From contig JBNRSN020000012.1 of the NCBI GenBank assembly GCA_051313645.2, positions 36,518,001 through 36,582,000 of the forward strand: a stretch of 64,000 bases of DNA, read 5' to 3'. Below are positions 8,872 through 38,983 of the stretch, one piece after another. The stretch is from Centroscyllium fabricii (Eukaryota). Position 1 is the stretch's first letter. Each line of letters begins with the position of its first letter. The notes beneath the pieces are model-generated. The model saw only the letters and a program-made list of their open reading frames with translations, was not told the origin of the DNA and ran no database searches. The position numbers and the translations under genes were made by a program.

Positions 8872-9633
8872 ACATAGAAGGTAGGAGCAGGAGGAGGCCA
8901 TTCGGTCCTTCGAGCCTGCTCCGCCATTCAATGAGATCATGGCTGATCATCCAAACCCAGTACCCTGTCCCTGCCTTCTCCCTCGATCCCCATCGAGCCT
9001 ACACCGACACACGGTGGCGCAGTGGTTAGCACTGTTGCCTCACAGCACTGGAGACCCGGGTTCAAATCCAGCCTCGGGTACTATCTGTGTGGAGTTTGCA
9101 CATTCTCCCCGTGTCTGCGTGGGTTTCCTCCGGGTGCTCCGGTTTCCTCCCACAGTCCAAAGATGTGCGGGTTAGGTTGATTGGCCAGGATAAATTGACC
9201 CTTAGTGTTAGGGGGATTGAATATGTGGGGTTACGGGGATAGGGTGGGATATGTGTCAGTGCAGACTCGAGAGGGATATGGGGACAAGGCAGGGACAGGG
9301 TGCTGGGTTTGGATGATCAGCCATGATCTCATTGAATGGCGGAGCAGGCTCGAAGGGCCGAATGGCCTACTCCTGCTCTATGTTTCTATATCCCACCCTA
9401 TCCCCGTAACCCCACATATTCAATCCCCCTAACACTAAGGGTCAATGTATCATGGCCAATCAACCTAACCCGCACATCTTTGGACTGTGGGAGGAAACCG
9501 GAGCACCCGGAGGAAACCCACGCAGACACGGGGAGAATGTGCAAACTCCACACAGATAGTACCCGAGGCTGGATTTGAACCCAGGTCTCTTGTGCTGTGA
9601 GGCAACAGTGCTAACCACTATGCCACCGTGCCA
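8872..9633 (-). mobile_element. HE1-like V-SINE split by an oppositely oriented copy
   Basis: 3' half at 8872-9008 and 5' half at 9389-9633 join into one consensus copy. Confidence 0.85.
9009..9388 (+). mobile_element. HE1-like V-SINE, near full length
   Basis: tRNA-like head (A box TGGCGCAGTGG, B box GGTTCAAATCC), V-domain, CR1 tail. Confidence 0.9.
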
Positions 9634-9753
9634 CCGAGTTATATCTATCTTACCAAATGAATAATCTATTGTTACTGTACCGATAAAGGTTTTACTAAAA
9701 ATTGCAACACACACTGCCACAGTCTTTTTGTGCAACTTCCTGCAAAACACAAT

Positions 9754-13155: not shown

Positions 13156-13274
13156 AATTAGGGCCAGGGAATCTTAAACGGTGGGGAAGGGGAGATTGGG
13201 GGGAAAAGACAAAGGCTGACAATAGATGGCCATGGATAGAGTTGCAATGGAGAGAACCTCAATTAAGTGGCTGC

Positions 13275-13468
13275 TGTGAGAATAACTGTGACTGATGTAA
13301 AGTCAGCACAGTCTGCTTTACGTCTGACGTCACGCCCGAGTGGCGGGAGCGGACGCCATCTGTAACATGCCTCAGTTGAGGCTTGGAGTTGATGGTAGAA
13401 GACCTGAATAAAGAAGCTCCGGTTAAACTAAGTGTTGGCCTCCCGACTGATCTCTTCATAACATTACA
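13275..13468 (+). repeat. 5' LTR of Mag-like element
   Basis: TG...CA, AATAAA; direct repeat of 17715-17908. Confidence 0.95.
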
Positions 13469-13479
13469 TGGTACCAGGA
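13469..13479 (+). promoter_or_regulatory. Primer-binding site, probably tRNA-Leu
   Basis: TGGTACCAGGA immediately after the LTR; complementary to the 3' end of vertebrate tRNA-Leu(UAA). Confidence 0.7.
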
Positions 13480-13512
13480 TTAGCGAACTCACCAACGGAC
13501 TGAAGCAGCAGG

Positions 13513-14349
13513 ATGGAAGGTATCAAACCCCCAGCAAATCGTCAATTAGACGGCAATGTGGATGAAGATTGGCGCGTATACAAACACAGATTTATGTTAT
13601 ACCTGACGGCCATCGAGGCGACCACAAGCTCAGGCACACGGAAAGTTGCACTTCTACTGATGGTTGCGGGCGTGCAGGCAAGCCAGTTGTTCAACACTTT
13701 TGCTTTTGAGTCCGAGGAGGACAAAAGTGACTTTGATAAAGTTATAAAAAAGTTCGAGGACTTTTGCACGCCAAAGAAGAATGAGGCCGATGAAAGGTTT
13801 GTGTTTCGCTCCAGAACACAGAAACAGGGGGAGACCTTCGATGTCTTCGTGACTGACCTAAAAATCAAAGCACAGTCATGCAATTTTAAGGTTCTAAAGG
13901 ATTCGATGATAAGAGATCAGATAGTCTTCGGCATATATGATAAGAAACTGCGGGAAAGAATGCTGAGAGACAGCGATTTGAAGCTGGAAGAGGCAGCCAA
14001 GATCTGCCACATGAGCGAGCTATCAGCATCGCAAACAAAAACGTTCGAGGGGAACGTCCAGGGACTGCAGAGTCTTCCAGTAGATGTAATACAGAGAAGG
14101 GAGTATGGAGAGCCACGAGGGCTTGCAGACTATCACAAAATGGCGGCGCACAACGCGAGGGAGCCTCGAGGGGCCAGCGAGCACAAAATGGCGGCGTATG
14201 ACTACAGAGAGGCCAGAGGACCCAGTGACCACAAAATGGCGGCGTATGACTACAGAGAGGCCAGCGGGCTTAGTGAGTACAAAATGGCGGCATTCGAATG
14301 CAATCGGTGCGGCAACAAGCATGGGGCCAGGCAGTGCCCAGAGTATTGA
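13513..14349 (+). pseudogene. gag: Gag (Mag-like); stop codon within the second zinc knuckle
   Basis: ERFVFRSRTQKQGETFDVFVTDLK, IRDQIVFGI, C-terminal CNRCGNKH..C. Confidence 0.9.
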
Positions 14350-14391
14350 AAAAGCTGTGCGAAATGCAAAGGAAGAAATCACTTTGCAAGA

Positions 14392-17300
14392 ATGTGCCTT
14401 TGGGAACAAAGCAAAAAGCCGGTGCACGCAGTAGGGGCAGCAGAAGAGGTGGCCCAATCATGGTATGTGGGAATGGTGCGAGACGCGCAGCCCACAGGAC
14501 CAAACAAAGAGGCCTGGGTCGCTCCTATACAAGTAAATGGAACAACAATCCCCTTTAAGCTCGATACGGGAGCAAAAGCGAACTTGATAAGCTGTGGGGA
14601 TGTAAAAAAACTAAAAGTTAAGCCTCAAATGATAAACAGGACGGTGTCCTTAAGAGCGTACAATGGACAGAGCATAGAAACAAGAGGAATGTGCAGATTG
14701 AAGCTGATAGTTAAACAGCGCAGGCACTTCCTCAACTTTGTGATAGTGCCAGAAGGGCACGAATCTTTATTAGGTGATGAGGCCTGCGTGGACTTGGGAT
14801 TAGTCAAACGAGTGTACACTATTAATGACATAAATGAAGCTCAAAGTGACCGGCGAGGAAGCTTGGACATAAATATTGTGGAGAGATATGCGGACGCATT
14901 TCAGGGGTTTGGAGCGCTGCCCCTCACGTACTCGATTAAATTAAGGGAGGATGCACAACCAGTTATACATGCACCCCGGAGAGTGCCAGTGGCCCTCCGC
15001 GAAAAGCTGAGAAATGAGCTGGAGCGAATGGAGGGATTGGCGGTGATAAAAAGAAAAGAACAGCCAACTGACTGGGTCAATTCCATGGTCTGTGTCAGTT
15101 CAAAGACCAATGATAAACTGAGGGTATGCATGGACCCCAAAGATTTGAATGCAAATATAAAGAGGGAACACTATCAGATCCCAAAAAGGGAGGAAATAAT
15201 GAGCGAAATGGCAGAAGCCAAATTCTTTTCAAAAATGGATGCATCCCATGGATTTTGGCCACTTAAATTGGACGAGGAAAGTGCCAAGCTCTGTACATTC
15301 AACTCCCCGTTTGGGAGGTACTCATATCAACGCCTGCCATTCGGAATAAGCTCAGCCCCAGAAATATTCCACAGAGCAATGGAAATGATTATAGAGGGCT
15401 TGGAAGGGGTGCGAGTGTATGTAGATGATACCGTGGTATGGGGTTCCACACAGAAGGAACATGACAGCAGGCTGGAAAAAACACTCCAGCGCATACAACA
15501 ATATGGGTTCAAACTAAACAAAGAAAAATGCCAATTTAAAGTACAGGAGATCAATTTCCTGGGAGATAAAATCTCCACAGAAGAGGTACAGCCGGATCAA
15601 AATAAGATTAAAGTGATACATGACATGGGAATGCCTGAGGACAAAAAAGGGGTGCAAAGGGCCCTTGGCATGGTGAACTATCAAGGGACATTTATCCCAA
15701 ATCTGGCCACGAAAACTGGGCACCTGAGGAAGCTGTTGCACCAAGAGACAGAGTTCCAATGAGGACATGAACACGAACAGGACTGGAAGGGGCTGTTGCG
15801 GACTTTAGCAACCGAACCCCTGTTAAAATTCTTTTGTCCGAACAAAAGGACAAAGGTGTCAACCGATGCTTCCAAGAATGGGCTCGGGGCGGTTGTACTA
15901 CAAGAAGATGAAGGTGAATGGACGCCAGTGGCATATGCGTCAAGGTCAATGACGGCTACAGAGTGCAGGTATGCACAGAGTGAAAAAGAATGCCTGGGTC
16001 TTGCATTTGGGTGCAAAAATTTCCACACCTATGTGTATGGACTACCAAAATTCACACTAGAGACAGACCATAAGCCATTATTAGGCATAATAAAGAAAAA
16101 CTTATGCGATATGTCACCACGAATTCAACGCCTCATGATGAGGCTCCAGCGGTATGATTTTGAACTCACATATGTGCCAGGGACACAAATGTACATTGCA
16201 GATGCATTGTCCAGAGCGGCACCGTGTGCCATGCAGCACAGTGACACAGAGGAGGACGTGAACCTCCATGTAGACATGGTCTACGCAGCACTGCCAGCTT
16301 CGTCACAACAGCTGGCGGTTATAACAAACGAAACGGCAAAAGATCCCGTGCTGAGGAAGGTAGTAAAAAACCTTCAGGAGGGATGGAAGAGAGGTTCCTG
16401 CAAACAATACTACCAGATACAGGGGGAACTGTCAGTGGTAAACGGAATCCTACTAAAAGGGGACAGAATTGTGGTGCCCACCTCCATGCGACCGGAGATG
16501 TTCGGGAGGATACACGAAGGGCACCCGGGGGTCGAGAAATCCAAACGGCGGGTGAGAGAGGTACTGTACTGGCCAAATATGAATGCGGACATTGACCAGT
16601 AAATAAGTGAATGTGCCACGTGCCAGGAATATCAATATAAACAAACTAAGGAACCCCTTCTAATGACAGAAATCCCTCATCGCCCGTGGGGAAAAAGTAG
16701 GAACGGACATGTTCCATTTTGGGGGAAAGGACTATTTGTTAGTCATAGATTACTATTTGAATTATCCTGAGATAGCCCTGCTGTCTAGCACCACGTCAAG
16801 AGGTGTTATTACACACCTGAAATCAATCTTTTCGAGACAGGGCATCCCCGCGACACTGGTGTCGGATAATGGACCCCCATATGCCAGCCAAGAATTTAGA
16901 GCATTTGCCTCTGAATATGATTTCCAACACATAACGTCTAGTCCGCACTACCCTCAGGCAAACGGAAAGGGCGAAAAGGGAGTGCAAATAGTCAAACGAC
17001 TCCTTGAGAAAGCAGAGAGCAGCAATGCCGACCCATACTTGGCAATAATGTCATACAGGGCTGCACCACTGGCAAGTGGCAAGTCACCAGCCGAGTTGCT
17101 AATGGGCAAAAAACTAAGGACAAGAATACCTTGTTACACTGCACCAGACCAAAGAAATGATAACTGGGCGGAAAAGGCTAGAAGGCTGCAATTGACCCAA
17201 AAGAGGTCCCACGATAGGAATGCCACAGGACTAGCCCCACTGCAAGAAAGGGACATGGTCCGCATTCGGGGGACCAGAGTCGTGGTCAAAAAAGGCCACA

Positions 17301-17506
17301 GTCCAACAGCAGGTTGCCCCCAAATCCTACAATGTGATGACGGAATCAGGAGAGGTGTACTGAAGGAACGGGAGGCACCTCCTGAAGACAAACGAGACAT
17401 TTTGCCCCCAAGAGGGGGGAGAAGAAGAGGAACAGATGGGGGAGACCTCACAAATGGAACAGGAAACAAGGGACCTGAGTGGTCCAGAGACGGATGCAAG
17501 AGATAG
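14392..17506 (+). pseudogene. pol: Pol (protease-RT-RNase H-integrase), broken by stops and frameshifts
   Basis: LDTGA, YVDD, TDAS, TDHKPL, ADALSR, HHCC zinc finger, SDNG, PQANG. Confidence 0.95.
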
Positions 17507-17714
17507 AATGGGGGACAGAAGGCCTGTGATCAGAATGGACTTGTGACCAGGAGTGTAATGTAATAACAAACATGTATTGTAAATAGTTACAGGGGTGCCT
17601 GGAAAGGGCTCCTAAGGAAAGTCATCATAACCATGGATATTCGTGTAAATATGTTATTTCACTATGTTATCAATAGTTCATGTATGTACAATGTTACCCC
17701 TATAAAGGGAAAGA

Positions 17715-17908
17715 TGCAAGGATAACTGTGACTGATGTAAAGTCAGCACAGTCTGCTTTACGTCTGACGTCACGCCCGAGTGGCGGGAGCGGAGGCCATC
17801 TGTAACATGCCTCAGTTGAGGCTTGGAGTAGATGGTGGAAGATCTGAATAAAGAAGCTCTGGTTAAACTAAGTGTTGGCCTCCCGACTGATCTCTTCATA
17901 ACATTACA
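17715..17908 (+). repeat. 3' LTR of Mag-like element
   Basis: Direct repeat of 13275-13468, preceded by a PPT. Confidence 0.95.
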
Positions 17909-18746: not shown

Positions 18747-18991
18747 TGATGCACTATCAATAACCTCAAAAGACTAGAAGTTATGTGAATAAACGATAGG
18801 CTTTTATTTGCTAAGGAGGAGCATACCTTTCTGCTGAGTGACTGGTCCAAGACTGAAGGGGGGTTGGGGAGCAGTTACCCTTATACCTGGGTCCGGGGGA
18901 GGAGCCACAGGCGGGGCCAGCAGGGGCATGTCCAGACAGGTTACATGCAGTGGACTATAATACAATATGTACAATACAATGGTTTACCACA
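18747..18991 (-). repeat. 3' LTR of element A
   Basis: TGTGGTAAAC...GCATCA on the minus strand; about 13 differences from the 5' LTR by eye. Confidence 0.95.
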
Positions 18992-19034
18992 TTCACCCCC
19001 TGTTTAAAAAAGAGTCCGGCGGGGGTGAAGCAGA

Positions 19035-20246
19035 TTAACAGTCACTATAGATTGAGACGGTCGGGGGGTCTGGTCCACCGCTGCGACCGTCGTAGAGCCG
19101 GCTGTGGTGCGGGTTCCGGTCTTGAGCGGTCCTGGGTGGTCTGGAACCCAAGACCGGAGTGTCGTCCTCGGCTGCGTCGAGTTGGCGGGTGCGTGGTGAC
19201 GGATCCTGGGGCATTGGCGTGCTGACCACAGGGTATGGAAGGACATACCATGGTACTGGTGCATCGTGGGCGGCGGTGGGGGGTGCGGTGGTCTCTGGGG
19301 CTCCTGAGGGTGCCAGATCTCTGATGGAGACCGTGTCCTCCCGCCCGTCAGGGAACGCCGCATAGGCGTACTGAGGGTTTGCGTGGAGGAGATGCACCCT
19401 CTCGACCAGGGGGTCCGACTTATGGCCCCTGATGTGCTTCCGGAGTAGGACGCGTCCTGGGGACATCAGCCATGACGGCAGCGAGGTCCCCGAGGCGGAA
19501 TTACTGGGCAAGCCAAACATTTTTTCGTGAGGGGTAGTGTTAGTGGCCGTACAAAGGAGAGATCTGATGGAGTGGAGCGCGTCGGGGAGGACATCCTGCC
19601 AGCAGGAGCCTGGAAGGCCTGTAGACTTCAGGGATAGCAGGGCGGCCTTCCAGACCGTCGCGTTCTCCCTCTCTACCTGTCCGTTTCCCCGGAGGTTGTA
19701 GCTGGTAGTCCTGCTCGTGGCGATGCCCCTGGCGAGCAGGTACTGACGCAGCTCGTCACTCATAAAAGAGGACTCCCCTGGTCGCTATGGATATAGCTGG
19801 GGTACCCGAACAGGGTGAAGAAGCTGTGCAGGGCCTTAATGACCGTGGAGGAGGTCATGTCCGGACAAGGGATGGCAAAAGGGAAACGTGAGTACTCATC
19901 AGTGACATTGAGGAAGTACACATTGCGGTCAGAGGAGGGGAGGGGCCCTTTGAAATCGACGCTCAGGCATTCAAAGGGGCGGTGGCCTTTATCAGGTGTG
20001 CTCTGTCTAACCGGTAAAAGTGCGGTTTGCACTCAGCGCAGACCTGGCAGTTCCTGGTCATGGTCCTGACCACCTCGATGGAGTAAGGTAAGTTGCGGGC
20101 CTTGATGAAGTGGAAAAACCTAGTGACCCCCGGGAGGCAGAGGTCATCGCAGAGGGCCCGCAGCCGGTCTACTTGTGCGCTGGCACATGTACCGCGGGAT
20201 AGGGCATCTGAGGGCTCATTAAGCTTCCCGGGCCGGTACAAGATAT
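19035..20246 (-). pseudogene. Integrase of element A (frameshifted)
   Basis: LSVDFKGPLP, IHSDQG, GNGQVEREN; resumes the host frame after the nested insertion. Confidence 0.9.
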
Positions 20247-20622
20247 TGTAGAGGCATGCAGGCCTGAAGAACCACGCTGGACACAGAGAATTCGGAAAAC
20301 AATCATTTAATGTTAACACAACTATGGCCAGGTAGCAAAGAGACTGAGCCACCTGGAACCAGGGTATTTAAAGGACCCGCGGTTGGTGACGTCACTGCCG
20401 GGTGTCCACCTGGCGACGTCATCACGCCGGAAGTCGCGGTGACGTCATCACGCCGCCCAGCGGGCGGGGCCGTCTCGCAGTACTCCCGAGGTGGACTCGA
20501 TGGTCCTGGTGGGCATGTCGCCACACAGCTCCCCCCCAGAATCTGTGAGGGAGAGCAAAGTTTAACCTAAAGTAGAAAGGAGCATAAAGTAAAATAAAAA
20601 AATGGAGCATAAAAGTTGAGTC

Positions 20623-23442
20623 TCAGGCGAGGTGTTGAGGTGGCCTGATGATGCGGCCAGCACGTGTCGTGCGCTGCTCCTTGTTCTGCGTGGGAGTGTG
20701 GGCGGGTTTTGGTGCGGTAGGGCGTCCGCGTTTTGGTGGCTGCGCGGGGACTGTTGTCTCGCCCGCCATTACGTGTGCCGGTTTGAGCCGGTCGATTGAG
20801 ACAGTCTCAGCTCTGTTGCCCATTTTTATCTGGAACGTTTTAGGTCCCGCCCGAAGCACTCTGTACGGTCCGTCGTACGGTGGCTGTAGTGGTGTTCGAT
20901 GTGCGTCGTGGCGGACAAACACATACTTGGCATTCTCGATGCCATCTGGAACACGTGCTGCCGGCTCTCCGTGCCGGGCCACCGGAAGTGGTTTGAACGC
21001 CGCTGCCTGGTTATTGAACTCCTTGAGGCAGCGGTCGGCTGACCAGGGTTCGTTGGTGTCCGCGACGAACTCGCCCGGTACGGTTAGGGGTTGGCCATAG
21101 ACGAGTTCCGCCGCTGAGGCGTGCAGGTCTTCTTTGGCTGCTGAACGCAGGCCGAGCATTACCCAGGGCAGGCAGTCGGTCCAGGTCGCGTCCTTAAGGC
21201 TGGCCCGCAGGGAAGCTTTGATGGAGCGGTGGAACCTCTCGCAGAGGCCATTGGCCTGTGGGTGGTAGGCGGTGGTTCGGTGCAGGGTTGCCCCGAGGTC
21301 GTGGGCGATGGTTGCCCATAGGGTTGAGGTAAATTGGGGGCCCCTGTCTGACGTGATGTCGGTGGAGATGCCGAAACGTGCGACCCAGGTGGCAATGAAG
21401 GCCCTGGCCAGGTCCGCGGTGGTGGTAGCGGTGAGGGGGACCGCTTCTGGCCAGCGGGTGCTGCGGTCGACCATGGTCATGACATGTGTATGTCCCCGTG
21501 ATGGTGGTAGTGGTCCGACCAGGACAATATGGACATGGCTGAAGCGTCTAGCTGGGATGGCGATCGTTTCAAGTGGCGCCTTGATGTGCTTGTGCACCTT
21601 GGCGCGCTGGCAGGCATTGCAGGTGTTGGTCCAGGCGTGGACATCCTTGCGCAGGCCGCGCCAAACGAAACGCGCAGAGATCAGCTTTGTGGACGCGCGG
21701 ACGCCGGGGTGGGACAGGTCATGGAGGGTCTGGAAGATGTGTCGCCTCCATGCGTGGGGGACGACGGGTCTGGGCTGCGGGAGGGAGACGTCGCAGCGGA
21801 CCTCCGTGGCTGTGGGCCCGTGTGCTACGGTGGCCAAGAGCAGGCCGGGGAGGTTGGTAGCTGGGTCGAGCAGATCGGGGTCGGTCAGTTGGTCGGCCGC
21901 CAGTTTGGCGTAGTCAACGGCCGTTTGAACGGAGTTGATGGTGGGGCGTGAGAGGCAGTCGGCGACCACGTTGTCGCAGCCGGCGATGTGCTGAATGTCG
22001 GTGGTAAACTCCGACACAGCCGCGAGCTGGCGCTGCTGCCTGGCCGACCAGGGTTCAGAGATCTTAGCCATTGCAGACACAAGTGGCTTGTGATCCACGA
22101 AGGTTGTAAAGTGGCGGCCCTCTAGGAGGAAGCGGAAGTGGCGCACCGCGAGGTAGAGAGCGAGTATCTCCCTATCGAAGGCGCTGTACTTGACCTCCGG
22201 GGGCCGGAGTTGTCGGCTGAAAAAGGCCAGGGGTTGCCAGGAGTCGCCTGTCCACTGCTCAAAGACTGCTCCGACTGCGCGGTCGGAGGCGTCGGTGGTG
22301 AGGGCTACTCTGGCGTTGGGCCTAGGGTGGGTGAGGAGCATGGCGTTGGCCAGGGCGGTTTTGGTTGCGGTAAAGGCGGTGGTGGCTTCGGCCGTCCACT
22401 CGACCGCAGCCTTGTTGGACTGGCCGCGGGTGGCGTGGTAGAGGGGGGCCATGAGGGCGGCTGCTCCAGGGATGAAGCGGTTATAAAAATTGACCATCCC
22501 GAGGAATTCCTGCAGCCCCTTGATGGAGTGCGGGCGGGGAAATTCCTGGACCGCCTGCACCTTGGAGGGCAGGGGTATGGCGCCGGTCTGGGAGATGTGG
22601 TAGCCGAGGAAGTCGATCGTCTCGAGGCCGAATCGACATTTGGAGGGGCTTAATATGAGGCTGTGTTCGACCAGGCGGTTGAAAAGGGCCTTGAGGTGGA
22701 GGAGGTGTTCCTGGGGGGAGGTGCTGGCCACGAGGATGTCGTCTAGGTAGACGAACGTGAACTGCAAGTCCCGCAGGACTGAGTCCATGGGGCGTTGGAA
22801 GGCCTGGGCCGCGTTTTTAAGTCCGAAGGGCATTCGGAGGAATTCAAAAAGGCCGAAGGGGGTAATGACGGCTGTCTTAGGGATGTCCGCCGGGTGCACT
22901 GGTACCTGGTGGTAGCCCCGTACCAGGTCGATCTTTGAAAAGATCGTGCAGCCGGCTAGCCTTGCTGAGAAGTCTTGGATGTGGGGGACGGGGTACCTGT
23001 CTGGGGTGGTGGCGTTGTTGAGGCGGCGGTAGTCTCCGCAGGGGCGCCAGCCGCCGCCGGGTTTGGGGGCAATGTGGAGGGTGGAGGCCCAGGGGCTGCT
23101 GGAGCGGCGGATTATGCCGAGTTGTTCCATGATGTGGAACTCGGCGTGCGCGATCTCCAGCTTGGCCGGGTCCAGCCTACGTGCGTGGGCATGGACTGGG
23201 GGGCCTGTGGTGGTGATGTGGTGCTCCACCCCGTGCTTGGCCGTACGGGCTGTGAAGGTGGGGTTGGTGAGGGCTGGGAACTCCGCGAGGAGCGTGGCGT
23301 ACGTGTCGGAGTTCCGGGCTCGGCAGTGGGATGCTGCGTGGGTCTGGTGTGCCTGCCCTGTGGAGCATGGGATGGTCGACATGTTGTGGATGTGGACCAG
23401 GCGGCGTCTGGTAACGTCGACCAGTAGGCCGTGGGCGCACAA
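20623..23442 (-). CDS. pol: Pol (RT-RNase H-integrase) of the CsRn1-type element
   Basis: 939-aa open frame; YLDD, TDAS, DHKPL, HHCC, SDRG, NGLCER; first integrase Asp replaced (HIVLVG). Confidence 0.9.
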
Positions 23443-24445
23443 AGTCGGCCCCGAGTAGGGGTATTTTGACTTGGGCTGTGATGAAGTCCCACTTGTATGT
23501 GTGGCCTGCCAGCTTGATGGTAAGCTGGCGGGTGCCGAACGTAACTATCTCGGAGCCGTTTGCGGCTTCGAGTGGTGGGCCTTGGGTGCCTTGTTTGGTT
23601 TCTGCGGGGGAGGCTGGCATGATGCTGTGCTGCGCGCCTGTGTCGCAGAGGAAGCGGAGGCCTGAGCCGCTGTCCATGACGAAGAACAGTGCTCCGGAGC
23701 GGCCTACGGACATGGTGGGGCTTGGGCTGGTTTGGGGTTTGAAGGTGCAGGGCTGGACGCAGCGCTGCGCTTTGTCTTCAAACCTGGTGTGGTAGTAGCA
23801 CCAGCCGGGGCCTGTGGTGCGTGGCTTTTTACGGGTACGCACTGGCCTGGGTTTGGACTTGGGGCCAGACCTGGGGTGCGCGTAGTACTGCTCCGGTGGA
23901 GCAGCAGTGGGTTGGCACGTGGCGGCTCGGGTGCGCTCGGCCCTCATCAGCTTGTCGGCCTCCTCAGCCAGTTGCTCTTTAGTGTAGTGATCAAGGACCG
24001 TCAGAGCCGGTCTGACAGAGGGGGGCAGTTTGAGGAGGAACAAGGCGCGCTTAATGGTGGCCGGGTCGCAGTTGAGCGCTTCCATTTGGGCCCAGAGGTC
24101 CGATGGGTCTGCGTCCCCGAGTTCGGGGAGGTTAATGAGCTGGCAGTCGCGCTCGAATTGGGTGTGGGTGAATTTTTTTAGCAGCGCGGCCTTAAGCGAT
24201 TCGTACCTGCCAGCAGTTGGTTCGTGCTGTATCGATGACCACATTTGGTCGACCGTGGTCTGTGAAAGGGCCGCGAAGAGCAGGCTGTATCGATCGTCCC
24301 CCTGTATGCCATGGATGCGGTAGGTGTTCTCTGTGTTGAGGAACCAGGCCGCTGGACGTAGTTCCCAGAACTCTGGCAAGTTTGGAATTTGGCCGTAGTT
24401 CTGGCCCCGTCTGTGGAGTCGTGCTGTTTGGATCCCTGCTGGCAT
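23443..24445 (-). CDS. gag: Gag-protease of the CsRn1-type element, frameshifted from RT near 23443
   Basis: LPEFW...[34 protein letters not shown]. Confidence 0.88.
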
Positions 24446-24826
24446 GGTGGTTGTGATTCAACTGAGGCAGCTTGGTCCTCTGTCCTGCAGCAACTGCTTC
24501 ATTATGTTCCCTTGGAATTCGTTCCAAGTATCGAGGTCACCACTGTAGAGGCATGCAGGCCTGAAGAACCACGCTGGACACAGAGAATTCAGAAAACAAT
24601 CATTTAATGTTAACACAACTATGGCCAGGTAGCAAAGAGACTGAGCCACCTGGAACCAGGGTATTTAAAGGACCCGCGGTTGGTGACGTCACTGCCGGGT
24701 GTCCACCTGGCGACGTCATCACGCCGGAAGTCGCGGTGACGTCATCACGCCGCCCGGCGGGCGGGGCCGTCTCGCAGTACTCCCGAGGCGGATTCGATGG
24801 TCCTGGTGGGCGTGTCGCCACAATAT

Positions 24827-26445
24827 CATAATTGTAGGTGGAGAGTTCGATTCTCCACCTCAATATCTTGTCGTTCTTGATTTTGCCCCGCTGCTTATTG
24901 TTGAACATAAAAGCAACTGAACGTTGGTCAGTCAGCAGGGTAAATCGCCTGCCGGCCAGGTAATGCCACCAGTGTCGTACGGCTTCTACAATGGCCTCGG
25001 CCTCCTTTTCGACAGAGGAATGTCGAATTTCGGGGCCCTGGAAGGTGCGTGAAAAGAAGGCCACGGGTCTGCCCACCGGGTTAAGGGTAGTGGCCAGGGC
25101 GAAGTCGGATGCATCGCTCTCCACCTGGAATGGGATGGATTCGTCCACGGCGTGCATCGCGGCCTTGGTAATGTCTGCCTTAATACCGCTGAAAGCCAGG
25201 CGGGCCTCTGCCATCAGGGGAAAGGAGGTGGACTTGATGAGGGGGCGACCCTTGTCCGCATAATTGGGGACCCACTGGGCGTAGTATGAAAAGAAACCCA
25301 GGCATCTTTTCAGGGCTTTGAGGCAGTGAGGGAGGGGGAGCTCCAGGAGGGGGCGCATGCGGTCGGGGCCGATGACTCCATTCTCCACGACACAACCAAG
25401 GATGGCGAGGCGGGTTGTGCGGAATACACATTTCTCCCCGTTGCAAGTCAGATTCAGGAGTTTGGCGGTGTGGAGAAATTTCTGGAGGTTGGCGTCATGG
25501 TCCTGCTGGTCATGGCCGCAGATGGTGACATTATCCAGATACGGGAATGTGGCCTGCAGCCCGTTCTGGTCAACCATTCGGTCCATCTCCCGCTGGAAGA
25601 CCGAGACCCCATTGGTGACGCCAAAGGGGACCCTTAAATAGTGGTAGTGGCAGCCATCTGCCTCGAAGGCAGTGTACTGGTGGTCCTCCGGGCGGATAGG
25701 GAGCTGGTGGTACGCAGACTTCAAATCGATGGTGGAGAACACCCGATATTTTGCAATCTGATTGACCATGTCAGATATGCGGGAGAGGGGTTACGCGTCC
25801 AGCTGCGTGTATCGGTTAATGGTCTGACTATAGTCAATGACCATGCGGTGCTTCTCACCAGTCTTTACGACCACCACTTGGGCTCTCCAGGGGCTGGTGC
25901 TAGCCTCGATGATCCCCTCCTTCAGGAGCCGCTGTACCTCTAACTTGATAAAGGTTCTGTCCCTGATACTGTACCGCCTACTCTTGGTGGCGACTGGCTT
26001 ACAGTCTGGGGTGAGGTTCGTGAACAGCGGAGGAGGGGCGACTTTAAGGGTCAAGAGGCTGCAGGTGGTGCGCGGTGGGCGATTTAAAGGCTGCTGGCTG
26101 CAGGCAGCGGGGGGAGGGGCCGAGGGGCTGTGGGTGGCGCGCTGTGGGCGATTCAAAAACTGCTGGCTGCAGACAGAGATGGGGGAAGGGGCCCACCGTA
26201 CTCCATTGTCACGCTCTGGACGTGACATTGAAAGTCGAGCCCCAGTAGCACGGCAGTGCAAGCTGTGGCAGCACGAGGAGTTTAAAGTTTTTATATTCTG
26301 TGCCCCGCACCATCAGGGTCGCTACGCAGTAGCCATAGACATCCGCTGTATGAGAATTTGAGGCCATCGATATCTTTTGGCTTGCTGGCCACACCGACAG
26401 AGAGTAGCGCCACACCGTATCTAGGCCGTTTACCTTAATGGCCAT
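24827..26445 (-). pseudogene. pol: Protease-RT-RNase H of element A
   Basis: SPWRAQVVVV, IDLKSAYHQ, PFGVTNG, YLDN, SDAS, TDQRS; several frameshifts. Confidence 0.92.
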
Positions 26446-27494
26446 CATAGACCTGGCGAGTTGATGAGGCCTGGATTGGTCCAGGGTGATGGAGGCCAGC
26501 GTTGGGTTCGATGAGTCGTACGTTGAGGCGGTGGAGAAGTCGGGCCCTGGTCCCAAGATGGCAGCCTGCACGGTTTACACACGGCCGGCAGCGTCCAAGA
26601 TGGCGCCTGGTCCCAAGATGGCGGCCTGCACGGTTCACACGCAGCCGGCGGCGTCCAAGATGGCGGCCTCCACGGCCCACATGTGGCGCTGCTTGATTTG
26701 GGGGCTGGTTTGGTTCTGCACACCTTGGCGTAGTGTCCCTTCTTACCGCAGCCGGAGCAGATCGCGTCCTTCGCTGGACAGCGTTGTCTGGGGTGCTTGG
26801 CTTGACGGCAGAAATAGCACTTCGGGCCGCTTGGTATCGCAGCTGTCGTCGGGTCACTGGTGGGTCGTGGCGGAAGTGGCGTAGCGCAGGCCTGCGGCCT
26901 CCCCGAGTCCCAAGATGGCAGCGTCCGCGGTATCCACGAGGCGGCCGCGTGGTCAGGGGAGTAGGCGTCCATGTTCCTGAGGGCCACGTCTAGCGAGTCC
27001 GCGAGCTCTATCGTCCTTTGCAGGTCGAGCCCACCCTGTTCCAACAGTCTTTGTCGGATATAGCCAGACCTGATGTCGGCGACATAGGTGTCCCTGATCA
27101 AGCTCTCGGTGTGCACTATAGCCGTCACCGCTTTACAGTCACAGGCCCGACCGAGGGCCCTCAGTGCCTGCAGGTATTCATCGCCCAACTCACCGGGTTG
27201 CTGCTTGCGGGTAGCCAGGAGGTGCCTGGCGTAGACTGTGTTGACCTTCTTAGTGTACTGGCTTTTTAAGAGCCTGATCGCTTCGGGGCAGGACGTGGCG
27301 TCTCTGATCATTGAGTACACTCGGGGGCCTACCCGGGAGTTGAGGACCAGCAGCTTTTCGGCGCCTGTCCGGACGGTTGTGCCGGATGCGTGGAGGAACG
27401 CTTCGAAACAGCTCAACCAGTGCTCGAACATGTTAGAAGCATCTGGCAATTGCGGATCCAGTTCTAGTGTTGTAAGTTTTAGAATTTGCTCCAT
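26445..27494 (-). pseudogene. gag: Gag of element A
   Basis: YARHLLATRKQQPGE, IRQRLLE, two CCHC-type knuckles; homologous to 34115-35035. Confidence 0.9.
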
Positions 27495-27518
27495 GGTACA
27501 AAATTTAGCGAATAAAAT

Positions 27519-27763
27519 TGATGCACTATCAATAACCTCAAAAGACTAGAAGTTATGTGAATAAACGATAGGCTTTTATTCACTAAGAAGCAGCATACCT
27601 TTCTGCTGAGTGACTAGTCCAAGACTGACGGGGGGTTGGGGAGCGGTCACCCTTATACCTGGGTCCGGGGGAGGAGCCACAGGCGGGGCCAGCAGGGGCA
27701 TGTCCAGACAGGTTACATGCAGTGGACCATAATACAATACGTGTAATACAGTGGTTTACCACA
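27519..27763 (-). repeat. 5' LTR of element A
   Basis: TATAAG box, TCAGT Inr about 30 nt downstream, AATAAA. Confidence 0.95.
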
Positions 27764-33827: not shown

Positions 33828-34096
33828 TGTGGTAAACTGGTATTTCACCACAGTATCGTACCACTGTAATGGTACCATAATGCACCACTGTACATATGTA
33901 GATATCTGTATACAGGAGCCTGCCTCAGCTGACCCACCTCTGACTCCTCCCCTGAGTCCAGGTATATAGGTAATTGCCTACCATCCCCCGGTCAGTACAG
34001 ACCCGAGCTCAGCTGAGACACGCTCCATTCTATAGTTGATAAAAGCCTTCAGTTGAGGTAACTATTCATCTTTGTGTCTGAATTGACGATACGTCA
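33828..34096 (+). repeat. 5' LTR of element B
   Basis: TG...CA; TATATAG box; TCAGT Inr. Confidence 0.95.
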
Positions 34097-34114
34097 ATTT
34101 TATTTACTATAATT

Positions 34115-35035
34115 TTGAACATGGAGAGCAGTGCAGTAAAACCGGACCGCCTCGATATCAACCCTCAGGCGCCCGATGCGGCGAACAATTTCGAACATTG
34201 GTTTGGCTGTGTCGAGGCCTACATGAAGGCCATGAAGGCGACCAGTGAGGAGGACAAACTCCAAGTACTGGCATCCAGGATCAGCGGCCGGGTGTATTCA
34301 CTCATCAGAGGCATCAAGACCTATAAAGAAGCTGCCAAGAAGCTGAAGGACAGCTATATGCGCCCGGTCCACTCGGTTTATGCCAGACACATATTGGCGA
34401 CCAGAAGGCAACGGCTGGGTGAGTCAAACGAAGAATTTTTGTTTGCGCTCCAAGCCCTCATACGGGCCTGCGACATCAAGGCAACGACGGCCGAGGAAGG
34501 GGCCAATCTCCTGGTCCGCGATGCATATGTAGCAGGACTCAGGTCCAGCCAGGCCCGACAACGGCTGTTGGAACAAGAGACTCTATCGCTCGAGTCCGCT
34601 ATCATGCTGTCTAATGCGGTGGACAGAGCGCTCAAGCGTATGGACGCTTACGGGGACAATGACTCTCACACGGGCCCACCTAACCTCTGGGTGCTGCAGA
34701 CACAGGCCGAAGCCCCAATGACAGCAGCGGCAGCTGCGAAGACGGCGGCGGGTCCCAAATGCTACTTCAGGGGCCAGGCGAAACACCCGCGAGCGCTGTG
34801 CCCCGCGAGGAATGCGACCTGCACGAGGTGCGGGAAGAAGGGACATTTTGCGAAGGCTTGCAAGTCCAGCCTGACCTCAAGACCCAACAGCGCGGCCTGC
34901 GAAGCCAACGATGCCACTCTGTGGCCACAGGTATGGTGCTGCAGCGCGACCCAACAGCAGCCAGCCAGGTGCAAATCGCGGGCACCGCCATCACTTTTAA
35001 AATCACGGCGGCGGCCAGCCGCGCGCGCGGCATAG
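34115..35035 (+). pseudogene. gag: Gag of element B
   Basis: YARHILATRRQ, RQRLLEQ, CTRCGKKGHFAKAC. Confidence 0.9.
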
Positions 35036-35459
35036 GCGCCGCCATCTTCAGCGTGACCGCGGCCAGCCATGTGTGACCCACCAGCGCCGCCATCTTCCAC
35101 ACAGCGGTCAGCCGCGTGCAAACCACGGGCGCCGCCATCTTGCCTACAGCGGTCAGCCGCGTGCGAACCACAGCTGCCGCCATCTTTGCCGCGGCCGCCA
35201 TCTTGCCCACAGCGGTCAGCCGCGTGCGAACCACGGGTGCCGCCATCTTGCCCACAGCGGTCAGCCGCGTGCGAATCATGGGCGCCGCCATCTTTGCCGC
35301 AACAACAGCTAGACACATGCGAAACGCCAGCGCCGCCATCTTCGGAGCGGCCATCTTGCCACTCGCCCCAGACGGGGCCCCAGCCAGCGGAGGGCCCCCC
35401 ACACACACAACATCGGCCTCAGCCACAGTCAATCAGGCCAGGCCGCACGCCTTATCCAA

Positions 35460-38400
35460 CTCCATGATGGGGATCAAGGTGGAGGGGCACGCCACTAACT
35501 GCCTGTTCGACACCGGTAGCACAGAGAGCTTCATTCATCCCGACACAGTGCGGCGCTACGCACTGCAGACCCAGCGACGCATTACCAAATCTCCCTAGCC
35601 TCAAAGTCCCACTCGGTGGACATCACCGGCTACTGCAGCGTCAGGCTCACCATCAGGGACCGCACTTACCGTAATTTTAAGCAGTACGTTCTCCCGCAGC
35701 TGTGCGCCCCAGTATTACTGGGACTGGATTTCCAGTGTCACCTGAAGAGCGTGACGATGGAATACGGTGGGTCCCTGGCCCCCCTCACCGTCAGTAGCCG
35801 GGCCGATCCCGACCTAACGCGGCGCTCGACTTGCGGCCTGTCCACACTGAAAGTCGACCCCCCCTCGCTGTTCGCCAACCTCGACCCCAAGTGCAAACCC
35901 ATTGCAACCAAAAGTCGGCGGTACACTGCAGGGGACCGGGTGTTTATCAGGTCGGAGGTCGAGTGCCTGCTAAAGGAAGGAATCATTGAGGCCAGCACCA
36001 GCCCCTGGCGGGCCCAGGTCGTGGTGGTTAAGACGGGCGAGAAACTGCGCATGGTCATATACTATAGCCAGATGATTAACCACTACACTGGGCTCGACGC
36101 CTACCCCGCATCTCGGATATGGTAAACCAGATCGCCCAGTACAAGGTCTTCTCCACGATCGACCTCAAGTCGGCGTATCACCAGCTCCCCATCCGGAATT
36201 CCGACCACCGGTACACCGCCTTCGAGGCGAACGGCTGGCTCTACCACTTCCTCTGGGTCCCCTTCGGCATGACCAATGGAGTGTCGGTCTTCCAATGGGA
36301 GATGGACCGGATGGTTGACCAAAACGAGTTGCAGGTCACTTTCCCGTACCTGGACAACGTGACCATCTGCGGCCATGACCAGCAGGACCATGATGCCAAC
36401 CTCGCCAAATTCCTTCACACGGCCAAACGGCTGAACCTGACGTATAATAAGGATAAGTGCGTCTTTAGTACGGAGCGGCTCGCCATCCTCAGCTATGATG
36501 TGGAAAACAGGGTCCTCGGCCCCGATCCCCAACGTATGCGTCCCCTGCAGGAGCTGCCCTTACCCCACAATCTCAGAGCCCTGAAGAGATGCCTGGGGTT
36601 TTTCTCCTATTATGCACAATGGGTTCCCCAGTATGCAGATAAGGCCAGACCTCTCCTCAAGGCCGACATCTTCCCACTCCCGGCAGAAGCCCAAGCGGCA
36701 TTCGCCCAGATCAAGGAAGACATCATCAAGGCGACCATGCACGCCGTTGATGAGTCCATCCCCTTCCAGGTGGAAAGCGACGCATCGGACTTTGCCTTCA
36801 CCGCCACCCTCAACCAGGTGGGCAGGCCCGTAGCGTTCTTCTATCGGACCCTACAGGGACCCGAAATTCGCCACTCCGCAGTGGGAAAGGAGGCCCAGGC
36901 TATTGTGGAGGCAGTGCGCTATTGGCGCCACTACCTGGCCGGTAAGAGATTTACCCTACTCACCGACCAACGGTCGGTGGCGTTTATGTTTAACACTAAA
37001 CAGCGGGGTAAAATTAAGAATGATAAGATCCTTCGGTGGCGGATCGAGCTCTTGACTTATGAGTATGACATTCTTTACCAGCCAGGTAAGCTCAATGAGC
37101 CCCCGGACGCCCTGTCCAGGGGAACGTGCGCCAGCACCCAGCTTGACCGGCTGCAGGACCTCCACGATCGCCTCTGCCACCCGGGTGTCACCAGACTCTC
37201 CCACTTTGTGAAGTTCCATAGCCTCCCCTACTCCATCTCGGAGATCAAGGCTATGACCAAAGAGTGCCCTATCTGCGCTGAATGAAAACCCCAATTTTAC
37301 AGGCCAGACAGGGCGCACTATCTCGGACCGGAAAACCCTGCAGCGGGTAGTCAAAACTGCCCAACGAAATACCGGTACACAGCTACCGTCAATGGAAAGC
37401 ATCTACCTCAAACGCTGCTTACGGAGGTCTATGAACATTATTAAAGACCCCACACACCCCAGCCACAGTCTGTTCGCCCCCCTGCCCTCCGGGAGGCGCT
37501 ACAGAGCAATTTGCACCCGCACGACTAGATTTCAGAACAGCTTCTTCCCCAGGGCTGTCAGCCTCCTGAACTCTAAAAAGAAACTCCGGTACCTGCACGC
37601 CTGATAATGTACTCTACTGTATGCATTTTGCATGTAATTTATTTATTTTATTTGCACTACTCTCGGGAGAGTCGAGTCTTCGTCTCGTTGTATTGTACTA
37701 GTACTCTGCAATGACAATAAAACTTGAATTGAATTGACATCATCAAGCCCACCTGCCCCTTCGAGCGCCTGAGTGTGGACTTCAAAGGTCCCCTCCCTTC
37801 CACTGACCGCAACTCGGATTTCCTCACGGTCATCAACGAGTTCTCCCGCTTCCCCTTTGCCTTCCCCTGCCCAGATATGACGAGCGCAATGGTGATCAAA
37901 CACTTCACCACGCTGTTCACCATTTTCGGTCTCCCCAGCTACATCCACAGCGACCAGGGGTCGTCGTTCATGAGCGACGAGCTGCGTCAGTTTCTGCTCC
38001 AGAAGGGGATTGCCTCGAGCAGAACGACCAGTTACAACCCCCAGGGGAACGGCCAGGTAGATAGGGAGAACGGGACAATCTGGAGTCCAGAGGCCTTCCA
38101 GTATCCCGTTGGCAGCAGGTCCTCCCTGACGCGCTCCATTCCATCCGCTCTCTGCTGTGTTCCGCTACCAATGTCACACCTCACGAACAATTGTTTTCCT
38201 TCCCCAGGAAATCGACTTCGGGGACAGCACTCCCGCTGTGGCTGACCACCCCGGGGCCAGTCTTGCTTAGGAAGCACGTCCGCGGCCACAAGACTGACCC
38301 CCTGGTGGAACGGGTGCACCTGCTCCACGCAAACCCGCATTATGCGTACGTGGCATACCTGGACGGGCGCGAAAACACAGTCTCAATCAGGGACCTGGCG

Positions 38401-38679
38401 CCCGCCGGGACCACGATCACGGAACCCCCGGTTGAGCCTCAGCTCCACCAGCCACGACCCACCGAACACTGGCCCCCATACACACACACACACACCGGGG
38501 CCCTCGACATCAACGACCGACGAACAGAGGTCGGACATCGCACCACTGCCACCATTGGCGGACGACACAACCCCGACCCCGCGACCAGAACCACCATCAC
38601 CGGCACCCCGTCGGTCCCTCAGGCAGACACGGCCACCCGAGAAACTGATCACAGAATGCTAAATTGCCAACTGTGTTAG
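35460..38679 (+). pseudogene. pol: Pol of element B (PR-RT-RH-IN), disrupted
   Basis: LFDTGS, YLDN, SDAS, HHCC, VDFKGPLP, HSDQG, GNGQVDREN. Confidence 0.93.
37319..37737 (+). mobile_element. Rex1/Babar LINE 3' fragment inserted in the integrase of element B
   Basis: IIKDPTHPSHSLF.PLPSGRRYR...NSFFPRAV; tail ATGACAATAAA(TTGAA)n. Confidence 0.88.
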
Positions 38680-38722
38680 CGCATGTTCACCCCGCCGAAC
38701 TCATTTTTAAAGAAGGGGTGAA

Positions 38723-38983
38723 TGTGGTAAACCTGTATTTCACCACTGTATTGTACCACTGTAATGGTACCATAATGCACCACTGTACATATGTAGATAT
38801 CTGCATTCAGGAGCCTGCCTCAGCTGACCCACCTCTGACTCCTCCCCTGAGTCCAGGTATATAGGTAATTGCCTACCATCAGTACAGACCCGAGCTCAGC
38901 TGAGACACGCTCCATTCTATAGTTAATAAAAGCCTTGAGTTGAGGTAACTATTCGTCTTTGTGTCTGAATTGATGATACGTCA
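38723..38983 (+). repeat. 3' LTR of element B
   Basis: Direct repeat of the 5' LTR with an 8-bp deletion. Confidence 0.95.

Follow-up and report, generated by a model that had tools for sequence, protein, structure and literature searches.

A natural YLDN active-site motif in an abundant Ty3/Gypsy retrotransposon family of Centroscyllium fabricii

Introduction

Natural replacement of the last aspartate of the YxDD motif by asparagine has a precedent in BEL/Pao retrotransposons of nematodes, where YVDN occurs in C. elegans Cer7-Cer12 and in the hookworm Atlas virus (PMC554778, PMC9094657). These carriers appear intact and recently inserted, and PMC554778 states both that the activity of the Asn form is still to be determined and that the question of whether a working element can carry Asn at this position is open.

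The same substitution at the same position has been engineered in two yeast elements. In Ty3 reverse transcriptase (RT), polymerase activity is lost in D151N and D213N but survives in vitro in D214N, which is less processive and does not transpose; the authors suggested that the metal is held by D151 and D213 (PMC5371799). In Ty1, D211N lowers kpol 223-fold, alters pyrophosphate binding ~170-fold and blocks transposition, and second-site suppressors in RNase H restore 5-10% of transposition (PMC2148107). Of the three aspartates, these mutants mark the third as the easiest to do without, and the puzzle posed by a natural Asn form is therefore the missing in vivo penalty.

Here we analyze two Gypsy-type elements in a window (the whole 64,000-nucleotide stretch of DNA studied) from the Centroscyllium fabricii genome, for which an initial annotation had noted YLDN and proposed a naturally compensated active site. 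Its premise that Asn at the second Asp blocks Ty1 transposition agrees with PMC2148107. The YLDN case is real, and is a product of neither decay nor, very probably, mobilization in trans. Unlike the BEL/Pao carriers, this family is of the Gypsy type and lacks env; it is spread over many animal phyla, vertebrates among them, has ~222,000 motif copies and belongs to a clade that has switched between Asn and Asp repeatedly. The Ty3 and Ty1 mutants keep polymerase activity in vitro and fail to transpose in vivo (PMC5371799, PMC2148107), whereas the YLDN form has amplified in nature, contradicting the in vivo Ty3 result within the same superfamily. No paper on a YxDN clade of Gypsy elements was found in the literature searched, which lay outside most subscription journals, Repbase and GyDB.

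Results and Discussion

Two broken window elements share YLDN and are of the Ty3/Gypsy type

Elements A and B had been claimed to encode YLDN with synonymous differences in three of the four codons, and reading both loci bore this out: B encodes TAC CTG GAC AAC (36347..36358, plus strand) and A encodes TAT CTG GAT AAT (25541-25530, minus strand). Both motifs lie inside Pfam RVT_1 domains with RT_RNaseH next to them, and both align with the YLDD (D213/D214) of Ty3 RT, so that Asn occupies the third catalytic position. Both copies are broken by stops and frameshifts. By itself the two-copy argument is weak, because all three codon differences are C/T and one falls at a CpG; the genome-wide counts below settle inheritance. 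The features of the two elements are as follows.

33828..38983, plus strand: element B, a full-length but broken Gypsy LTR retrotransposon of 5.2 kb, with a 5-bp target duplication (AGGAT) and LTRs 93% identical
33828..34096, plus strand: 5' LTR of B (TG...CA)
34031..34044, plus strand: 5' LTR segment of B complementary to the primer-site position, as judged by sequence pairing; the fold of B's 5' region is without this stem
34097..34111, plus strand: primer-site position of B, lacking TGG and complementary to the LTR segment of B that holds the poly(A) signal
34121..35035, plus strand: gag of B, with a CCHC zinc knuckle
36110..36496, plus strand: RVT_1 match of B (Pfam, E=1e-19)
36161..36163, plus strand: first catalytic Asp of B (motif A, IDLKSAY), Asp in 328 of 339 in-clade proteins
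36347..36358, plus strand: YLDN motif of the B RT, aligned to Ty3 YLDD
36755..37060, plus strand: RNase H domain of B (Pfam), its four acidic residues invariant in a 71-row alignment
37739..38478, plus strand: integrase core of B, frameshifted
38709..38722, plus strand: polypurine tract of B
38723..38983, plus strand: 3' LTR of B
18747..27763, minus strand: element A, broken and of a subfamily other than that of B, with target duplication AGCAT, LTRs 95% identical and a nested insertion
20247..24822, minus strand: nested Gypsy element inside A, of a different family, with YLDD, a TGG-type primer site and LTRs 98% identical
25530..25541, minus strand: YLDN motif of the A RT
27505..27518, minus strand: primer-site position of A, complementary to the LTR segment of A that holds the poly(A) signal

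Between its gag and protease, element B also has tandemly expanded units of 45-63 bases (34950-35360), and the start of its integrase is split by ~400 additional bases (37340-37738).

The family is Ty3/Gypsy (Metaviridae), as judged by its structure, its order of domains and the similarity of its RT. Its elements have TG...CA LTRs, a polypurine tract and short target duplications (5 bp in both window elements and in many other copies in the genome), and the domain order is gag-protease-RT-RNase H-integrase, with one locus (L061) encoding a CCHC box, DTG, RT, DAS and the HHCC start in order within a single 1,439-aa frame. The best sequence match of the RT is Ty3 RT (E=2e-48). Structure prediction, proposed alongside the original observation as a check, confirmed the RT-RNase H fold (mean pLDDT 85; a caulimovirus RT ranked first and Ty3 second in the fold search) and gave no active-site contacts. 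YLDN replaces the canonical YxDD, which is usual in Ty3/Gypsy and not strictly defining, and the tRNA primer site that is usual in the superfamily and absent in the Tf1 group is lacking. Assignment to BEL/Pao (Belpaoviridae) was rejected on three grounds: the family has two CCHC boxes and not a triple, only Gypsy-type Pfam domains are found, and the RT groups with Gypsy-type matches.

The 1,439-aa Gag-Pol of L061 is longer than that of invertebrate members of the clade (about 1,200 aa). The single long reading frame and short LTRs would fit the Cigr-1 clade of Ty3/Gypsy, a possible placement. That clade has been reported in a tunicate and in molluscs (PMC6238403; see also PMC3670739), and the text and supplement portions of PMC6238403 that were searched do not mention the YLDN motif; a term search of PMC3118150 returned nothing relevant.

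YLDN is the inherited motif of an amplified family

The pattern YLDN[VI]TICG has 222,000 exact matches in the 7.2-Gb genome, compared with 311 genome-wide for YLDD, 489 for YLDS and 896 for YLGN in the same flanking pattern, the last being a dead control in which an essential Asp is changed to Gly. Each of these variants is one A-to-G change from YLDN, and the reversed control pattern gave 0 matches for each count. YLDD is rarer than both control mutations and is therefore at or below background. When the first 30 of the 311 YLDD copies were placed with 62 YLDN copies on a DNA tree built with the motif codon masked, the state changed 26 times where shuffling gave a mean of 25.7, and 324 of 500 shuffles were as low as observed, indicating that the sampled YLDD copies are independent one-off mutations.

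Codon comparisons agree with inheritance of the Asn. A and B differ with dN 0.124 and dS 1.37, a dN/dS of 0.09 (bootstrap 0.05-0.13; 296 codons; Nei-Gojobori). Of the 62 YLDN copies, 55 had sufficient codons for comparison; among these, dN/dS is 0.08 over 715 pairs with dS>0.8 and 0.42 over 19 pairs with dS<0.1, the pairs being non-independent in both sets; the rise in the closest pairs is as expected from post-insertion decay added onto selected divergence. The RT with YLDN has thus been under purifying selection. The counts of 222,000 and 311, the scattered YLDD copies on the tree and the dN/dS values together rule out post-insertion decay, as had been argued from two copies, and identify YLDN as the inherited normal motif of an abundant Ty3/Gypsy family. 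A family that places about one motif in every 32 kb of this genome would be mislabeled under annotation rules that treat YxDN as a mark of dead copies.

A YLDN-bearing subfamily has also multiplied recently. One 81-base YLDN stretch has 1,529 exact matches in the genome, and 12 sampled loci of this stretch are 98.9-99.5% identical (about 99.2%) over 3.1 kb, with 6 of the 12 open throughout. Loss of coding without selection, the mark of non-autonomous elements, was not seen, as dN/dS is 0.08-0.09 between subfamilies and young copies retain open frames. It is likely from this pattern that elements with Asn still copy themselves. The copy numbers amount to population-scale evidence that a natural Asn form replicates well, from which we infer its enzyme activity.

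If the YLDN copies were defective and depended on a YLDD helper acting in trans, young autonomous YLDD copies should accompany them, and these were searched for. A looser pattern with 479 matches revealed the one amplified YLDD (YLDDITVCG) family found in this genome, which belongs with the YLDN elements to a wider clade and is a candidate of the kind this explanation needs, and the search patterns are blind to helpers with other flanking residues. The YLDD family has at most 138 matches, however, with Asp in 93 of the first 100. In 16 sampled copies its RT-RNase H is 49-69% identical to that of YLDN elements in the best segments, the copies are 89.5-94% identical to the first copy, the LTR differs from that of the YLDN family, and none of the 16 has an open frame >543 aa. 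Being small, older, broken and distant, it is too poor a match for the young YLDN burst and was rejected as the helper, and an amplified helper within the YLDN family is excluded by the scattered one-off YLDD copies on the tree. A passenger RT, moreover, would not hold a dN/dS of 0.09. Young autonomous YLDD copies able to mobilize the YLDN copies were thus not found in these searches, and we consider a YLDD helper extremely improbable.

The YLDD family is possibly an independent arrival in this genome, as judged from its sequence. Its loci (L221-L236, e.g. G000:C1:258583700-258592700) have a Gag whose start resembles the one in invertebrate members. Four further loci (L237-L240) are low-copy relatives with a motif ending ...AG, two of them with LTRs and the same self-complementary primer site as the clade.

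A different proposal is that Asp is regained downstream of the DNA, either because A-to-I editing alters the codon or because the Asn is deamidated. In its favor, the codons AAY and GAY are one A apart and Asn can deamidate. Edited RNA would enter DNA as GAY, yet YLDD is rarer than the two control mutations; nearly every member has Val or Ile after the Asn, which is a slow context for deamidation. Restoration of Asp therefore seems barely credible. In contigs from four sequencing runs whose RNA status is a guess, none of the differences listed fell at the Asn codon, with 77 more differences beyond those listed.

Asn and Asp alternate within an animal-wide clade

Homologues with Asn extend far beyond this genome. 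The motif ends in DN in 102 of 120 shorter homologues (12 DD, 6 other), in 93 of 120 long homologues (26 DD) and in 65 of 80 metagenome loci (11 DD) that were retrieved by patterns leaving the motif out, several of these loci coming from the same assemblies. The closest named homologues are from sharks and rays, and the named hosts include sharks, rays, corals (Oculina, Acropora), a ctenophore (Mnemiopsis), a mollusc (Plakobranchus) and a shrimp (Palaemon); named DD carriers include Trichuris, Apostichopus and Cyamophila. Two clade members (P0131, P0161) carry bacterial metagenome-assembled labels and are probably animal DNA in those assemblies.

From 387 proteins, the 359 that cover the core and have DN or DD were kept for a tree built with the motif column masked. 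In this tree, 319 rows form one clade (support 100) of 230 Asn and 89 Asp proteins that contains every DN, and the 40 outgroup RTs are all DD. The nested element inside A (20247..24822, minus strand) falls in the outgroup and is younger than A. The Asp neighboring the Asn is kept in 334 of 339 in-clade proteins, and of the 11 in-clade proteins scored as lacking the first catalytic Asp, 8 are uncovered or gapped at that position.

Within the clade the Asn/Asp state changes 37 times, compared with 69-86 in shuffled trees. In a reduced tree of 36 rows, hand-picked after the first tree had been seen, no fewer than 7 changes are required by well-supported branches, and grouping all Asp rows as one clade is rejected (AU p=6e-5); all trees were FastTree or quick IQ-TREE runs. 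Listed members covering the motif are all Asp in 7 of 9 Asp-led clusters, one of the other two clusters having Asp plus one Gly and the last having one Asp and five Asn. The last cluster looks like a one-off, which means that some of the 37 changes are decay, while most Asp rows represent real families. Among 50%-identity representatives at >=40% identity Asp is the commoner state (53 Asp, 41 Asn), and early-branching clade members are mostly Asp, so Asn is not the universal state of the clade. In the shark and ray branch, Asn is present in 21 of 21 rows; it looks fixed there, a pattern that strict neutrality predicts poorly.

The primer-site position is complementary to the LTR of the same element

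Tf1/sushi retrotransposons are self-primed and have no tRNA primer site, and the YLDN clade resembles them. Of 32 elements examined, 7 lacked an LTR pair, and none of the other 25 has a primer site starting with TGG. In the 40 of 57 elements that could be scored, the perfect match of the primer-site sequence was a median of 13 nt to the element's own LTR compared with 5 to the LTRs of other elements; the boundary rule behind this score required a T-run, and the 25-element TGG count is the unbiased one. The partner of the primer site is the poly(A)-signal segment of the same LTR, and the two sequences change in step between subfamilies. In B the complementarity is 13 of 14 bases to the 3' LTR and 12 of 14 to the 5' LTR. 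The stem was present in 26 of 41 Asn and 0 of 6 Asp metagenome loci, three of the Asp loci being without a 5' end, and in 0 of 47 control regions. In the best fold of the 5' region, A and L061 form the stem and B does not.

These patterns suggest that the clade probably primes on its own RNA. As in Tf1/sushi, the primer-site position would pair with the element's own RNA; unlike in Tf1/sushi, the sequence it pairs with overlaps the poly(A) signal and is apparently placed some tens of bases past a TATA-like box, not in the first RNA bases. Judged by titles and the beginnings of abstracts, none of the self-priming papers listed concerned the YLDN clade. The LTR end of B and its subfamily, adjoining the primer-site position, is a small hairpin (TGACG-ATA-CGTCA, 34084-34096).

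A link between Asn and self-priming was considered and dropped. On inspection, the Asp member L148 and the genome's own Asp family also have a self-complementary primer site, and three of the stemless Asp loci are those that lack a 5' end. Self-priming appears common to Asn and Asp members and so does not explain the switch between them.

Clade-wide tolerance of Asn fits better than paired compensation

Several residues in the palm and fingers set this clade apart. Thr occurs two residues after the Asn in 270 of 319 in-clade proteins and in 0 of 40 outgroup proteins, NGV replaces NAP in motif B, and a fingers segment is changed. All of these are present in the Asp members too. The initial annotation had read the Asn as compensated, and compensation arising lineage by lineage at second sites would follow the example of the Ty1 D211N suppressors, which restore 5-10% of transposition (PMC2148107). 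Raw residue frequencies do differ between Asn and Asp proteins at a few columns. Across 10 Asn/Asp sister pairs that are 71-86% identical, however, no residue in RT-RNase H co-switches with the motif: the best of 410 columns does so in 5 of 10 pairs, which at low power gives P=0.81. The sister pairs also share all 14 other active-site-proximal columns inspected, minor swaps aside, and underpowered independent-pair tests of 14 columns in 14 pairs gave nothing among the results listed. A change paired with the Asn thus failed to appear, and the unusual neighboring residues do not distinguish Asn from Asp members, leaving compensation within each lineage distinctly doubtful.

Since no residue tracks the Asn/Asp switch, tolerance across the whole clade fits better than residue-for-residue compensation. 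We think it probable that the Asn-bearing RT works with two essential aspartates plus Asn, in a clade-wide active site that would tolerate either Asn or Asp. The two kept aspartates may bind both metals, as proposed for Ty3 D151 and D213, and permissive changes fixed early in the clade could have removed the in vivo penalty seen in Ty3 and Ty1. The permissive background would have come first, after which either residue could work. Candidate permissive changes, chosen by clade conservation only, are the Thr two residues after the Asn, the NGV replacing NAP in motif B and the remodeled fingers segment. Natural Asn and Asp sister enzymes would make the role of the third carboxylate testable without engineering.

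RNA-virus polymerases such as mononegaviral L and birnavirus VP1 carry GDN or ADN in motif C. They resemble the YLDN RT in having Asn at the equivalent palm-hairpin position in working polymerases and differ from it in being RNA-dependent RNA polymerases with no sequence relation to it.

Tolerance alone leaves aside whether Asn is favored in some hosts, where it might tune polymerase rate, pyrophosphate release or RNase H coupling, for example for self-priming. The uniform Asn of the shark and ray rows points this way, as does the absence of any amplified Asp subfamily among the 222,000 copies, which fall in subfamilies saturated at silent sites; the separate Asp family in the genome stayed small, and pyrophosphate binding is the property altered ~170-fold in Ty1 D211N (PMC2148107). 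Against it, many invertebrate families nested among Asn families are fixed for Asp, Asp-bearing members have the same self-complementary primer site, and copy number depends on many other factors. We regard an advantage for Asn as unlikely. A composite scheme joins these ideas: a two-aspartate RT in which the clade Thr and rebuilt motif B would replace the third carboxylate, with Asn in sharks and rays selected for self-priming and so helping the family to rank among the commonest LTR families in a vertebrate genome. As a whole it is speculative and rather improbable, and tolerance of either residue remains our preferred reading.

Other repeats in the window

Two further Gypsy elements in the window, the one nested in A (20247-24822, minus strand) and one at 13256-17908 (plus strand), have YLDD and YVDD, respectively, and TGG-type primer sites. 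These two non-YLDN elements may be of the CsRn1-like and Mag-like types. At 9010-9635 the window also holds a 243-base inverted repeat (97%) with 135 bases between its arms, built of a common dispersed repeat.
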